This document shows, in pieces, positions 28,134 through 34,901 of a stretch of 64,000 nucleotides of DNA. Below the pieces are notes generated by a model. The model saw only the letters and a program-made list of their open reading frames with translations. It had not been told where the DNA came from and did not search any database. The position numbers and the translations under genes were made by a program. Numbering within the stretch: position 1 is the stretch's first letter; the number at the start of each line of letters is the position of its first letter. Source of the stretch: Escherichia phage 4MG; sequence record NC_022968.1; one strand, written 5' to 3'.

Positions 28134-28178
28134 AGGCAAAGGAGAGGAGATTGAATATTTATTATTATTAGAATTTGG

Positions 28179-28257
28179 ATGCGTGGATGGGAGTCGAACC
28201 CACAATTTTCGGCTTATGAGGCCAACGTGATCTATATATCCGTTTCACTAACACGCA
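28179..28257 (-). tRNA. tRNA-Met or Ile2 (anticodon CAT), extended D-region
   Basis: hand-folded: T-loop TTCGACT, anticodon loop CTCATAA, CCA encoded; D-loop about 14 nt. Confidence 0.55.
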
Positions 28258-28266
28258 ATTGTTTGG

Positions 28267-28339
28267 TGGGACCGGGTGGACTCGAACCACCGACCATCTG
28301 CTCTTCAGGCAGGCACTCTACCAACTGAGTTACAATCCC
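28267..28339 (-). tRNA. tRNA-Phe (GAA)
   Basis: T-arm GGTGG/TTCGAGT/CCACC, anticodon loop CTGAAGA, A73, CCA encoded. Confidence 0.75.
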
Positions 28340-28349
28340 ATAAGATTGG

Positions 28350-28420
28350 TACTTCCTGGTAGAATCGAACTACCGCAACTGCCGTGTAAAGACAGGGTTC
28401 TACCATTAAACTAAGGAAGC
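28350..28420 (-). tRNA. tRNA-Val (TAC)
   Basis: T-loop TTCGATT, anticodon loop TTTACAC, CCA encoded. Confidence 0.7.
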
Positions 28421-28430
28421 ATTAAGGTGG

Positions 28431-28504
28431 TGGGCGACAGGGGACTCGAACCCCCAAAATTCGGAATCTAAATCCGACACGTATACCAATTCCATCAATC
28501 GCCC
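28431..28504 (-). tRNA. tRNA with Leu-type anticodon TAG but short (5 nt) variable arm
   Basis: 74 nt cloverleaf, anticodon stem TCGGA/TCCGA, loop TTTAGAT, A73, CCA encoded. Confidence 0.55.
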
Positions 28505-28616
28505 ATAAATGTTTGGAAGCCCATACTGTCTTCCTGATCAGCCAGAATCCTTTTCTAGCATTATCATCGGCCCTGTAGATCCTATCATTAGCCAGGGGAT
28601 CGACGCCTTAATTTGG

Positions 28617-28689
28617 TGGAGCCACTGAGAATCGAACTCAGTTCTACAAGGTGCAAGCCTGTGATTTTATCCAAATAAACTACAGCCCC
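28617..28689 (-). tRNA. tRNA-Ala (TGC)
   Basis: anticodon loop CTTGCAC; G3:U70 pair present; CCA encoded. Confidence 0.75.
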
Positions 28690-28696
28690 ATGTTGG

Positions 28697-28769
28697 TGCA
28701 AGTACAGGGATTCGAACCCCGATTCTCAGCTTCGTAAACTGATGCTCTGTCCAGTTGAACTATACCTGC
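28697..28769 (-). tRNA. tRNA-Arg (ACG)
   Basis: T-loop TTCGAAT, anticodon loop TTACGAA, CCA encoded. Confidence 0.7.
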
Positions 28770-28778
28770 TAAAATTGG

Positions 28779-28853
28779 TCGGAGCGGCAGGATTCGAACC
28801 TGCGACCCAGTGCATCCAAGGCACCCACGCTGACCAGACTGCGCTACGCTCCG
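28779..28853 (-). tRNA. tRNA-Pro (TGG)
   Basis: T-arm GCAGG/TTCGAAT/CCTGC, anticodon loop CTTGGAT, perfect acceptor pairing, CCA encoded. Confidence 0.75.
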
Positions 28854-29040
28854 AAGGTGCAGAATTTTAATTATCCCAGATACTGCAACTGGTATCGCTG
28901 GCTAGCTAATTTGATCCGCTCTGGTCACCTCGTGTGACATTGCAGACAGGCTAACCTATTCTGCAAGAGCGTATTGGGTTTGATACGTCGAACTCATTTT
29001 GAGTGCCTTCCGGCAATTTACATCAACATATCAAATTTGG

Positions 29041-29111
29041 CGGGAACTTCCTGACTCGAACAGGAGACAACCGCAGCACAAGCGGCCATTATGCCCCTTA
29101 ACTAAATTCCC
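29041..29111 (-). tRNA. tRNA with anticodon GTG (His-type) but G73 and C37, atypical
   Basis: T-arm TCCTG/actcgaa/CAGGA on plus strand, anticodon loop TTGTGCT, CCA encoded. Confidence 0.45.
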
Positions 29112-29118
29112 AATTTGG

Positions 29119-32861: not shown

Positions 32862-32936
32862 AGAATTCTCCTCTCATGAAATTTAAAATTTAAGTTACTT
32901 CAAATATTTGCCGACATCCGTGTCGGCACAGCGGTA

Positions 32937-33548
32937 TTAGTTTTTGCCAGTGTTGACAACAACGCCTTGGCGGTTTGCATCAGCTTTCGCGATTTCCAGA
33001 CGGGTTTCGCGTTCTGCTTTCAGATCTTCACGGGCAGCTTCAAGCTGTTCGGTCAGCATTGCGATACGATCTTTGTCTGCCTTGGTATTGGCATTCAGTT
33101 CAGCAATTGCAACCTTGTGAGATGCTTCCAGATTCGCCTTAACAGCGTTCAGTTCAGCATATACTTTCTGTTTTGCATCTGCAACAGCGGTGTTGATTGC
33201 ATCTTCGTTGCTGTCCTTAGCAACAGCCAGTTCGTTACGCAGACCATCAACGACACCCGGTTCGATAGCGACGAGGCCACGAGCCTTCAGCAGTGCGTTC
33301 AGAACGCCGTCTTCATTTTCCAGAACCTTGATCTTCAGCTTAGACTTTTCTTCAGCGAATTTCTCATCAAACTGAGCTTCAATCTGACCAAGCTCTTGCT
33401 GTTTAAACTGAATTTCCTGACTGATGCGCTCAGAACCATCTGCCAGAGATTGCAGGTCAGCGACGACCTTACTCAGACCAGAGGCAGCGGTTGCAACAGC
33501 TTTGGTAGCACGTTCAGTTACAGAAATTACAGTTTTAGAATCAGACAT
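32937..33548 (-). CDS. hypothetical coiled-coil protein (203 aa)
   Basis: ORF; similar composition to neighbouring 215 aa protein. Confidence 0.45.
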   Translation of the reverse strand: MSDSKTVISVTERATKAVATAASGLSKVVADLQSLADGSERISQEIQFKQQELGQIEAQFDEKFAEEKSKLKIKVLENEDGVLNALLKARGLVAIEPGVVDGLRNELAVAKDSNEDAINTAVADAKQKVYAELNAVKANLEASHKVAIAELNANTKADKDRIAMLTEQLEAAREDLKAERETRLEIAKADANRQGVVVNTGKN

Positions 33549-33588
33549 TAAGTTCTCCTTTGCATTAAATTGAGTTTAGATACTACAC

Positions 33589-33726
33589 TTACACGTTTTG
33601 TTTGTCAAGCGAATCTTTAATTATTTCTTCGGTTGTTGGATTGTTTTCAAACCACGACCAATAATACCAGGCAATAATCAAAGAACAAATCACCGACATA
33701 ACAACAAAAATTACACCACCGCTCAT
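33589..33726 (-). CDS. small hydrophobic membrane peptide (45 aa)
   Basis: ATG overlapping upstream stop (ATGA), RBS AAGGA; MSGGVIFVVMSVICSLIIAWYYWSWF. Confidence 0.35.
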   Translation of the reverse strand: MSGGVIFVVMSVICSLIIAWYYWSWFENNPTTEEIIKDSLDKQNV

Positions 33727-33911
33727 CGTACAACGTCCTTGATTGAATCACAGACTTCGCCAACAGCATCGGCAGTTGGAGATACGATCATCTCATCAGC
33801 AGCATTGATTGCTTCACCTGCAAGCTCCACAAATGGGGTAGCTACAGCGGCAGTCACTTCAACTGCGGTTCCAACAACATCACCAGCCATGCGTAACAGA
33901 GATCCGAACAT
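33723..33911 (-). CDS. hypothetical protein (62 aa)
   Basis: ORF track; Ala/Val-rich. Confidence 0.3.
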   Translation of the reverse strand: MFGSLLRMAGDVVGTAVEVTAAVATPFVELAGEAINAADEMIVSPTADAVGEVCDSIKDVVR

Positions 33912-33933
33912 TTTGTTCTCCTTTTAATGGTGG

Positions 33934-34031
33934 ACGGAGGTAAGGATTCGAACCTTACGTGATGCGCCCCTAAGCTGGGGGTCCAGGGATTCCTCACCTG
34001 TAATTAAGCATTACTCCCAAAGTCCATTGTT
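33934..34031 (-). other. tRNA-like 3' half followed by unassigned spacer
   Basis: T-arm TAAGG-attcgaa-CCTTA with upstream TGG, but no matching 5' acceptor strand found. Confidence 0.25.
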
Positions 34032-34034
34032 TGG

Positions 34035-34107
34035 TGGGGCATGAAGGATTCGAACCTTCGACCTTCGGCTTAAGAGGCCGCTACTCTAACCGCTGAGTTA
34101 ATACCCC
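34035..34107 (-). tRNA. tRNA-Lys (CTT)
   Basis: perfect T-arm GAAGG/TTCGAAT/CCTTC, anticodon loop CTCTTAA, CCA encoded. Confidence 0.7.
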
Positions 34108-34220
34108 GAAATTTGGCCAGTGTTTTTCAAGACGTTGCACGGAATCGTCACGGTTGCCGCAGCCCTTTATTTTAAGACGCATCGCCGCAGCCAGCTTCGT
34201 CTATCCCCATGCCGGAGGAA

Positions 34221-34550
34221 TTACTTCTTCTTACCTTTCGGCGCTACGGCTTCAACAACCTTAGCGTCTTTAGCTTTACCAGCGCGTTCACGCTTGGTCT
34301 TGCCAGTGCGAACACGGTGTGAGGCAGAAATCACCTGACCGCCTTCAACGCGGGAAACAGATTCCCATACGAATACAACGTTGCCGTCTTCATCACGACG
34401 CTTCTTGCGAATGGAAACGGTTTTTGTAACACCGCCCAGGCGAACATCGTGTGGTGCAGAGTGAGTCTGCGTTGACTTCGACTCAAACTGGAAAGGCTGT
34501 TTGATTGCGTCGATTGCAGAAACTTTCTTAGTTGCGTTTTTCTTAGCCAT
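34221..34550 (-). CDS. hypothetical basic protein (109 aa), possible nucleic-acid binding
   Basis: ATG with RBS AGGAGA; Lys/Arg-rich termini. Confidence 0.4.
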   Translation of the reverse strand: MAKKNATKKVSAIDAIKQPFQFESKSTQTHSAPHDVRLGGVTKTVSIRKKRRDEDGNVVFVWESVSRVEGGQVISASHRVRTGKTKRERAGKAKDAKVVEAVAPKGKKK

Positions 34551-34619
34551 GTTGTATTTCTCCTCTATTTGCTAATGCCTTGTTGACGTTGGTAATACTA
34601 AACTTTCGTACTTCCTTTG

Positions 34620-34787
34620 TCAATCGTTTTTTAAATCTTTTTTCGGTTCTTTGTGAAGGCCGCGTGAAATGTCGTAACGGTCATACACAGAGTTGCTGTT
34701 GCCTACAGATGTTACCTTTCTGGAATCCCAGTTGAAGAACATTCTGTTTGGTTTGCTCATTCCGAAAAACTCATAAATCTTGTTCAT
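34620..34787 (-). CDS. small protein (55 aa)
   Basis: ATG at 34787 with RBS GAGGAGAG; not in ORF track (below 60 aa). Confidence 0.35.
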   Translation of the reverse strand: MNKIYEFFGMSKPNRMFFNWDSRKVTSVGNSNSVYDRYDISRGLHKEPKKDLKND

Positions 34788-34804
34788 GGTCTCTCCTCGT
34801 TTGG

Positions 34805-34878
34805 TAGTTCTGGCAGGGATTGAACCTGCGACCTCTTCCTTATGAGGGAAGCGCTCTAACCAACTAAGCTACAGAACC
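34805..34878 (-). tRNA. tRNA-Met (CAT), second copy
   Basis: perfect T-arm GCAGG/TTCAATC/CCTGC, perfect anticodon stem CTTCC/GGAAG, loop CTCATAA, CCA encoded. Confidence 0.7.
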
Positions 34879-34901
34879 ATCTCGTCTTGTTGAGGTGAAT
34901 A

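Follow-up and report, generated by a model that had tools for sequence, protein, structure and literature searches.

We analysed a 64-kb stretch of the genome of Escherichia phage 4MG (NC_022968.1), which is called the window here; all positions are given on whole-window numbering. A tRNA block was located on its minus strand at 28176..34878, and it comprised 27 tRNA genes, five tRNA-like elements (TLEs) and eight small conserved open reading frames (ORFs). We consider it highly probable that this block is a functional, co-transcribed and nearly complete tRNA set that frees phage translation from the host tRNA pool, and that codon matching and escape from host defences both acted as pressures on it. 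The cluster itself was already known, because the annotated tRNA regions of related phages were syntenic with it; it is the ordinary block of PVP-SE1/GAP31 type found in enterobacterial phages. Two points went beyond a first-pass annotation that had been made from the letters of this DNA. Many of the tRNAs were structurally non-canonical, and the tRNA-like pieces were conserved, not decaying.

Gene content of the tRNA block

ARAGORN at default settings called 25 tRNA genes, all on the minus strand and within 28264-34878, and it found no tRNA gene in the rest of the window. Two genes that it missed were added by Rfam RF00005, at 28179-28257 (45 bits) and 29459-29542 (50.5 bits). The union of both programs was 27 genes, and 26 of them reached at least the Rfam tRNA threshold (gathering score 29 for RF00005), with scores of 33.7-72.6 bits. 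This included Arg-GCG (31670-31743), at first called by ARAGORN only, which gave 39.1 bits in a targeted Rfam search. The 27th gene, Ser-UGA, rested on ARAGORN; its best Rfam match was the selenocysteine tRNA family (tRNA-Sec, RF01852) at 34.1 bits, below the gathering score of 47. Of the 27 genes, 25 encoded CCA, and the spacers within the tRNA runs were 0-9 nucleotides (nt) long. The intron mode of ARAGORN gave many long, implausible calls on both strands and was disregarded. Plus-strand calls at relaxed threshold (31006-31093, 31929-32025, 32715-32802 and 34232-34327) were rejected, as they lay inside ORFs or antisense to them.

The first-pass annotation agreed well with these results. It had folded about 27 minus-strand tRNA genes by hand, and a covariance-model search, named there as a possible refutation, was run with Rfam and recovered together with ARAGORN the same 27 genes, all minus. 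Its statements that most genes encode CCA and that the spacers are short (5-10 nt) were borne out by the counts above. The four tRNA-like elements that it listed were all there, but the count was low, since a fifth was found at 29348-29449. The strong downstream terminator that it described was seen as a GC stem (28132..28115) followed by a T tract. The protein genes that it placed at 29720..29875 and 30678..31043 matched phage families (E=6e-40 and 5e-47), and its protein block at 32214..33911 was confirmed and comprised four ORFs, all of which matched PHROG families.

The region shared 91% identity with Enterobacter phage EC152 and Cronobacter phage GAP31; for Salmonella phage PVP-SE1 and Klebsiella Mydovirus phages, the value was 83%. 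In addition, a 25-kb stretch of structural genes was about 90% identical to EC152, LNA4 and GAP31. Based on these identities, the source is a species-level relative within Seunavirus (Vequintavirinae), as judged from sequence, and would thereby belong to the lytic myophages of enterobacteria. The annotated tRNA regions of GAP31, EC152, PVP-SE1 and Klebsiella phage VIK251 were syntenic with the block and shared its ORF families and flanking genes, which was consistent with the phage origin implied by the first-pass annotation. The order of anticodons matched in eight relatives from two genera. The genes other than those of unusual shape were as follows, all called by both ARAGORN and Rfam.

34802..34878, minus: tRNA with anticodon CAU (Met, or Ile2 if lysidinylated), with D and T arms like those of the Ile-GAU gene; Rfam 72.6 bits
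34032..34107, minus: tRNA-Lys(CUU); Rfam 69.5 bits
31750..31824, minus: tRNA-Thr(UGU)
31208..31282, minus: tRNA-Arg(UCU)
31130..31206, minus: tRNA-Cys(GCA)
30588..30675, minus: tRNA-Tyr(GUA)
30505..30581, minus: tRNA-Ile(GAU)
30340..30417, minus: tRNA-Glu(UUC)
30178..30254, minus: tRNA-Trp(CCA)
30097..30172, minus: tRNA-Gln(UUG)
29890..29982, minus: tRNA-Ser(GGA)
29637..29729, minus: tRNA-Ser(GCU), with 3' end CC, abutting the next gene without a spacer
29116..29191, minus: tRNA-Asp(GUC)
28776..28853, minus: tRNA-Pro(UGG)
28694..28769, minus: tRNA-Arg(ACG)
28614..28689, minus: tRNA-Ala(UGC)
28347..28420, minus: tRNA-Val(UAC)
28264..28339, minus: tRNA-Phe(GAA)

Decoding set and codon usage

The 27 genes carried 25 different anticodons for 19 amino acids, and a Gly(UCC)-like element would fill the twentieth, so that the earlier figure of at least 17 amino acids was conservative. 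Every four-codon box was served by a tRNA with U34. Under ordinary wobble rules, the set read 47 of the 61 sense codons, which corresponded to 78% of phage codon use. It was a nearly self-sufficient decoder set. Because there was a decoder for almost every amino acid and U34 in the four-codon boxes, independence of the host tRNA pool would be its main use.

A comparison of codon usage, which the first-pass annotation had proposed, was performed between 63 ORFs of the window and 42 genes of Escherichia coli K-12, which served as a stand-in host. For 18 of 24 anticodons, the phage used the exact cognate codon relatively more often than K-12 did (binomial p=0.011). The highest phage/K-12 ratios were observed for AGA (4.8x), ACA (3.1x), GGA (2.1x) and AAG (1.9x). 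The codons covered by the array were not more phage-biased than the uncovered ones when all codons were tested (Mann-Whitney p=0.32).

These data bear on a simpler explanation, in which the array only supplies tRNAs for codons preferred by the phage and the odd tRNA shapes described below are neutral drift. The enrichment of cognate codons speaks for it, as does the fact that AGA and ACA, which are rare in the host, were strongly enriched and each had a matching phage tRNA; an equivalent argument was made for phage rV5 (PMC3606486). However, the set was nearly complete and included decoders for codons that the phage underuses relative to E. coli (AAA, GAA, UUA, AGC, UGC and CGC), and the all-codon test was not significant. 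The odd shapes also recurred in relatives, with compensatory changes counted for Asn and Ser(UGA) and visible in the Leu alignment, which is unlike drift. We regard codon compensation as the whole explanation as somewhat doubtful. Codon matching contributes modestly; it does not explain the nearly complete set.

Transcription signals and proposed mode of action

Promoter-like sites and a terminator were located on the coding strand of the block.

34899..34927, minus: promoter-like TTGACA-N17-TAGTAT, just upstream of the first tRNA (CAU)
34595..34623, minus: promoter-like TTGACA-N17-TAGTAT, ahead of the ORF of 109 amino acids (aa)
33580..33608, minus: promoter-like TTGACA-N17-TAGTAT, ahead of the 203-aa ORF
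31062..31124, minus: two promoter-like sites, TTGATA-17-TAAAAT and TTGACA-17-TAACAT, ahead of the 121-aa ORF
28105..28132, minus: intrinsic terminator with seven G-C pairs, GCCCCGC/GCGGGGC (28132..28115), loop TCTT, then TTTTCTTTTT

The exact TTGACA-N17-TAGTAT sequence occurred three times in the whole 64 kb, each time in this region and on the coding strand, with a chance expectation of 0. In the PVP-SE1 record, a promoter is annotated at the position equivalent to the 31062..31124 sites. The terminator had its T tract 3' of the stem and was the sole strong terminator after the last tRNA.

In the proposed mode of action, host RNA polymerase would start at the sigma-70-like promoters and run to the single strong terminator, giving long mixed tRNA-mRNA transcripts. 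Host RNase P and 3' processing enzymes would cut out the tRNAs, and host synthetases would charge them. Little 3' maturation should be needed because CCA is already encoded. The near-complete decoders, with U34 in the four-codon boxes, would then let translation run without relying on host tRNAs. The set may have been shaped by two pressures. The first would be a codon demand of the phage that the host tRNA supply does not match (A/U-ending codons, AGA, ACA and AAG). The second would be the depletion of host tRNAs, either by defence nucleases that cut tRNAs or through host shut-off.

tRNAs with non-canonical shapes

An altered tRNA body was found in the asparagine slot, and two leucine genes were also unusual.

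29197..29285, minus: tRNA-Asn(GUU), 89 nt, class II in shape through its long extra arm, with G73; called by ARAGORN
31289..31366, minus: tRNA-Leu(UAA), 78 nt, without a long extra arm; called by ARAGORN
28428..28504, minus: tRNA-Leu(UAG), 77 nt, without a long extra arm; called by ARAGORN

Ten homologues of the Asn(GUU) tRNA were compared, from Vequintavirinae and the jumbo Salmonella phage 7t3, and they formed two subtypes of 89 and 85 nt. The extra arm was kept through compensatory changes; in the alignment, 99.6% of the cells were paired and 16 pairs were changed on both sides. For example, extra-arm pair 46-60 was A-U in four, G-C in four and U-A in two homologues. The anticodon GUU, the loop CUGUUAA and G73 were invariant in all ten. 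The identity set of E. coli asparaginyl-tRNA synthetase (AsnRS) is G34, U35, U36 and G73, and all of these bases were present. We think that this class II tRNA(GUU) probably accepts asparagine. A literature search found no paper describing a class II tRNA-Asn in phages.

The same tRNA could instead be charged with serine, which would cause deliberate mistranslation of Asn codons. Its nearest non-Asn relatives were tRNA-Ser(GCU) genes of Pseudomonas phages, whose anticodon is one base away. A long extra arm, G73, C11-G24 and G2-C71 are identity elements of E. coli seryl-tRNA synthetase (SerRS); the first three were seen in this tRNA and G2-C71 in its 89-nt form. However, the 85-nt form had A2-U71, and yet all ten homologues kept the AsnRS identity set. 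The class II GUU tRNA was also the sole Asn decoder of the array, the same slot held an ordinary 75-nt tRNA-Asn in phage SPLA5a, and replacement of Asn by Ser throughout the proteome should be harmful. We consider charging with serine very unlikely.

In the case of leucine, bacterial tRNAs normally have a long extra arm. The Leu slots of the relatives held either the short form or a form of 85-89 nt.

Further deviations were observed in five other genes.

29548..29636, minus: tRNA-Ser(UGA), with acceptor and T stems of 8 and 4 bp, a D stem of 5 bp capped by a 3-nt loop, and U73
29456..29542, minus: tRNA-Lys(UUU), 87 nt, with an enlarged D loop; Rfam 50.5 bits
28176..28257, minus: tRNA with anticodon CAU, 82 nt, with a 14-nt D loop, U1-A72 and U73; Rfam 45 bits
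29038..29111, minus: tRNA with anticodon GUG (atypical His), with G73, C37 and no G-1; ARAGORN, Rfam 45.6 bits
31670..31743, minus: tRNA-Arg(GCG), with C37, G73 and a 3-nt variable loop; ARAGORN, 39.1 bits

The U73 of tRNA-Ser(UGA) is unusual for an E. coli tRNA-Ser. Its eighth acceptor pair, between position 8 and the base after the 4-bp T stem, was A-U in six and G-C in two of the eight sequences and was never unpaired. The alternative fold with a 7-bp acceptor and a 5-bp T stem gave G-U in six, G-C in one and one mismatch, and position 8 was never U. The 5-bp D stem had four pairs changed on both sides and a loop of 3-4 nt, which made the D arm similar to that of tRNA-Sec, and the long extra arm was 100% paired. 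The anticodon UGA and the long arm would fit serine. Genes of this 8/4 type were also seen in rV5-type phages, where tRNAscan missed them, and in Av-05, an Erwinia phage and phi92.

Mukai et al. (2017, PMC5389517) reported tRNA-Ser and tRNA-His of the 8/4 type from certain bacteria and from phages of these bacteria. Judged by its predicted fold, the Ser(UGA) gene here is of this architecture. It shares with the allo-tRNA-type tRNA-Ser of that report the 8-bp acceptor, the 4-bp T stem, the extended D stem with a tiny loop and the long extra arm. The reported tRNA-Ser came from Clostridia-type bacteria and, together with 8/4 tRNA-His, from tRNA clusters of alpha-proteobacterial phages. In contrast, the present case occurred in enterobacterial Vequintavirinae and phi92, and its discriminator was U73.

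The slots of Lys(UUU) and the last CAU gene held canonical genes in some relatives. The GUG tRNA at 29038-29111 had U upstream in place of G-1, so that it lacked the encoded G-1 paired with C73 of bacterial tRNA-His. Its homologues were annotated as Thr in Klebsiella phage DP and as Gln in P8734, and they had G at position 33 of the anticodon loop. In the slot of Arg(GCG), the relatives carried unrelated Ile, Ser(CGA) or 8-nt-loop genes.

All odd shapes (Asn, Leu, Ser(UGA), Lys(UUU) and CAU) recurred in related phages. In the case of Asn and Ser(UGA), the covariation showed that the folds are maintained by selection. The gene order of the array was fixed, but single slots were swapped between unrelated or differently shaped tRNAs, and HNH endonuclease genes lay inside the array in some relatives. 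The slot swapping and the HNH genes suggested cassette-like exchange.

tRNA-like RNAs

The block contained five tRNA-like elements and a cloverleaf with a shortened anticodon loop.

31558..31667, minus: TLE5, 110 nt, shaped like a selenocysteine tRNA; Rfam tRNA-Sec 20.1 bits
30264..30333, minus: cloverleaf with the 6-nt anticodon loop TCGTCA, without CCA; ARAGORN, Rfam 38 bits
29348..29449, minus: TLE3, a 102-nt tRNA-like remnant that ends in GCCA
29988..30063, minus: His-tRNA-derived element with anticodon loop CUGUGAC, C73-CCA and the aberrant T loop AGCGATA
33931..34027, minus: TLE7, with the canonical T arm TAAGG-TTCGAAT-CCTTA, a 5-pair acceptor stem and a CCA end
30425..30499, minus: Gly(UCC)-like element; Rfam 27.2 bits (below threshold)

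All five elements (TLE3, TLE5, TLE7, the His-derived and the Gly-like element) ended in CCA; the 6-nt-loop cloverleaf did not.

TLE5 folded into a 7-bp acceptor with U73-CCA, a D stem of 6 bp and its 4-nt loop, a hairpin whose 6-nt loop read CAGCCA, an extra arm and a T arm. Its long extra arm was free in sequence and kept its pairing. Nine pairs were changed on both sides, and 95.6% of the cells were paired, compared to 37-48% in slid controls. The hairpin stem was invariant in the Seunavirus/Mydovirus relatives, all of which had the loop CAUCCA in place of CAGCCA. A homologue of TLE5 adjoined tRNA-Thr in rV5-type phages, which have only about six tRNAs. There the hairpin differed and its loop was readable as UUUUUAA; the element was annotated as Lys, OTHER or '???(atcc)'. 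Ser(UGA) and TLE5 were also considered as selenocysteine or suppressor tRNAs and rejected; their tRNA-Sec scores of 34.1 and 20.1 bits were below 47, and they carried UGA and CAGCCA, not the anticodon UCA.

The 6-nt-loop cloverleaf was 100% identical in eight records from two genera, and TLE3 was 100% identical in nine records, also from two genera. The 7-mer CATCCAG was shared by a TLE3 hairpin loop and, in all relatives, by the loop of TLE5 (about 0.01 expected by chance). The His-derived element was 89-100% identical in more than 45 records, with one compensatory stem change, and was related to true tRNA-His genes of Vibrio phages. It had C73 with C at -1 and a non-canonical T loop, which departs from the G-1 pairing with C73 of bacterial tRNA-His. 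There was no sequence support for the GUG tRNA or the His-derived element as an 8/4 tRNA. TLE7 was 92-93% identical in GAP31, EC152 and FENT2. The Gly slot held an intact tRNA-Gly in relatives.

The elements and the odd tRNAs could be pseudogenes in decay, left behind as genes turn over in a recombination hot spot. This would account for the His, Gly, Met, Lys, Asn and Leu slots, which were canonical in some relatives and odd or degenerate in others. It would also fit the Rfam searches at E<=10, in which neither TLE3 nor the His-derived element had a match, and the predicted fold of TLE3, which was not better than that of shuffled sequence (z = -1.4). However, TLE3 and the 6-nt-loop cloverleaf were identical across two genera whose phage genomes differ by 10-17%, and the His-derived element was conserved with a compensatory change. 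TLE5 covaried far above its controls and was kept beside tRNA-Thr even in the tRNA-poor rV5-type phages. Decay is an unlikely explanation for us.

The tRNA region of phage T4 also gives rise to species 1 and 2, two stable RNAs that are not tRNAs and are processed together with its tRNAs. By analogy, the tRNA-like RNAs described here may be comparable to them. No paper on the T4 'species 1' stable RNA was found in a literature search.

Possible link with tRNA-cutting defences

In E. coli, the PARIS nuclease AriB targets three tRNAs, Lys(UUU), Thr(UGU) and Asn(GUU), which it cleaves at U36AAUC|A/C41; it also recognises the D loop, and changes at positions 39, 41 or 16 prevent cleavage (PMC12409363). 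The counterparts of this motif in the array were UAAUC|G together with a remodelled D loop in Lys(UUU), UAAGC|C in Thr(UGU) and UAACC|U in Asn(GUU). Phage tRNAs rescue infection from PARIS, PrrC and retron Eco7 (PMC11464382, PMC11555353). The unusual shapes and the changed nuclease-target motifs may fit a pressure from tRNA loss.

If this pressure were the only one, the array would be an anti-defence module, with reshaped tRNAs resisting nucleases, tRNA-like RNAs acting as decoys or sponges, and a CCA-adding-like enzyme, encoded next to the array, repairing tRNA 3' ends. It would agree with this that the most altered bodies included the PARIS targets Lys(UUU) and Asn(GUU), that the AriB motif was changed in all three target isoacceptors, and that the tRNA-like elements were either 100% identical across genera or covarying, and all ended in CCA. 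A defence that cuts tRNA tails has been reported (PMC12851939). However, the link was drawn from sequence, and no known decoy tRNA family matched the tRNA-like elements. The identity across genera could also be explained by recent cassette exchange, which clearly occurs in the region.

The enzyme in question was a neighbour of the array and was examined by fold comparison.

26640..28064, minus: 474-aa protein, adjoining the array downstream

The fold of its N-terminal part (about 200 residues) resembled the catalytic portion of poly(A) polymerase and of class II CCA-adding enzymes, with a Pol-beta-type head in which GG...DxD and a third carboxylate were present. At motif B (RRDxTxNA), FDFTINM was present and the two arginines were absent; the position of motif D (EDxxR) read TDYPI, with no arginine. 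The protein differed from class II CCA-adding enzymes and bacterial poly(A) polymerase I in these residues and in that it had no sequence-level match to them. Searches gave no match in Pfam or NCBIfam, nor in PDB with the single sequence or with a profile. The C-terminal part gave weak matches of ADP-ribosyltransferase/Tpt1-like type. Because the nucleotide-selection motif of CCA enzymes was not recognisable, a possible role in repairing or tailing the 3' ends of tRNAs is put forward as a lead only. The missing EDxxR motif, which leaves CCA addition by the enzyme putative, also counts against the anti-defence module. We hold defence as the only purpose of the array to be possible but rather doubtful.

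A wider version was also considered. The array would be a toolkit of deliberately reshaped tRNAs (the class II Asn, arm-less Leu and 8/4 Ser tRNAs, and the Lys and Met tRNAs with expanded D loops), of non-decoding mimics (the Sec-shaped TLE5, the 6-nt-loop cloverleaf, TLE3 and the His-derived element) and of the CCA-adding-like enzyme, which together would escape or soak up host nucleases that read tRNA shape. This version is decidedly tentative, and we would not expect it to hold.

We return to the nearly complete set that serves phage translation under both pressures. Several observations weigh against it. The differences of the AriB motifs from those of the E. coli tRNAs could be plain divergence, and the Asn tRNA of Klebsiella phage DP retained the E. 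coli-type UAAUCC. The tRNA-cutting retron Eco2 still restricts Vequintavirinae (PMC12916289), and the tRNA set is therefore no general shield. In addition, the all-codon test showed no greater phage bias of the covered codons, and the host in the codon comparison was only the stand-in K-12 with 42 genes.

Comparison with known arrays

The cluster as such adds nothing new, as the block was already annotated in GAP31 and PVP-SE1. The tRNA regions of the Seunavirus/Mydovirus phages GAP31, PVP-SE1, EC152 and VIK251 resembled it in gene order, strand, ORF families, flanking genes and terminator, with 83-91% DNA identity. The window differed from these four as follows. It had an extra tRNA, the GUG tRNA between Pro and Asp, otherwise seen only in two Klebsiella phages (DP and P8734) and two Salmonella phages (41 and 19). 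In the window, the slots for Gly and the 'regular' His were degenerate. The loop of TLE5 was CAGCCA, whereas theirs was CAUCCA.

Compared to the tRNA clusters of T5 and T4, the likeness lay in a large one-strand tRNA array mixed with small ORFs in a virulent coliphage; the difference was that there was no sequence relationship to the array here. The T5 tRNAs defeat PARIS and retron Eco7 (PMC11464382, PMC11555353).

For these phages, we found no description of the conserved non-canonical shapes, the tRNA-like RNAs or the CCA-enzyme-like neighbour. A single region of 6.7 kb held several tRNA architectures that go against the textbook assignment of shapes to amino acids in bacteria. They offer natural test cases for the tolerance of AsnRS, leucyl-tRNA synthetase, SerRS, EF-Tu and the ribosome towards changes in the tRNA body, and for shape change as an escape route from tRNA-cutting immunity (PARIS, PrrC and retrons). 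Routine annotation missed or mislabelled members of the array. One tRNA was called Thr in one phage and Gln in another, TLE5 was given as Lys, 'OTHER' or '???', and Ser(UGA) was often not called; the public annotations of relatives also missed or mislabelled TLE3 and the His-derived element.

Embedded ORFs and spacers

Eight ORFs lay between the tRNA genes.

34620..34787, minus: 55-aa ORF, phrog_6110, between Lys-CUU and the first CAU gene
34221..34550, minus: 109-aa ORF, basic, phrog_6662, between Lys-CUU and the first CAU gene
33723..33911, minus: 62-aa ORF, phrog_9123
33589..33726, minus: 45-aa ORF, membrane protein, phrog_14349
32937..33548, minus: 203-aa ORF, phrog_9325
32214..32861, minus: 215-aa ORF, phrog_1491, with the database label 'tail fiber'
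30678..31043, minus: 121-aa ORF, phrog_3330 (E=5e-47)
29720..29875, minus: 51-aa ORF, phrog_17355 (E=6e-40)

Each matched a phage protein family, with E-values of 9e-25 to 4e-95, and these ORFs are real genes. The last 10 nt of the 51-aa ORF, including its stop codon, were the first 10 nt of tRNA-Ser(GCU) (29720-29729), and the same overlap was observed in GAP31.

The model of the 215-aa protein was a confident helical bundle (pLDDT 88), and its sole marginal PDB match was 3kdq, a protein of unknown function (E=6e-3). A distant homologue in a Pseudomonas phage lay among early genes and adjoined an RNA ligase, with no tRNAs near. The 'tail fiber' label of phrog_1491 looks unfounded because of the predicted helical bundle, the location among early genes or in a tRNA region, and the RNA-ligase neighbour of the distant homologue. 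In the PVP-SE1 record, the family is noted as similar to T5.085. A 12-bp hairpin followed directly after the stop codon of the 215-aa ORF.

Two long spacers were conserved (77-98% identity) and folded far better than shuffled sequence.

31825..32213, minus: conserved, strongly structured leader from the 215-aa ORF to tRNA-Thr; fold z = -4.97
31367..31557, minus: conserved structured spacer

The leader was 77-96% identical in eight relatives. For the stretch 31367-31669, the comparison with shuffled sequence gave z = -3.9.

Just upstream of the tRNA region, a nicotinamide phosphoribosyltransferase gene was located at 36145-37827 on the minus strand, as it is in GAP31. This gene could be relevant to host defences that deplete nicotinamide adenine dinucleotide (NAD).

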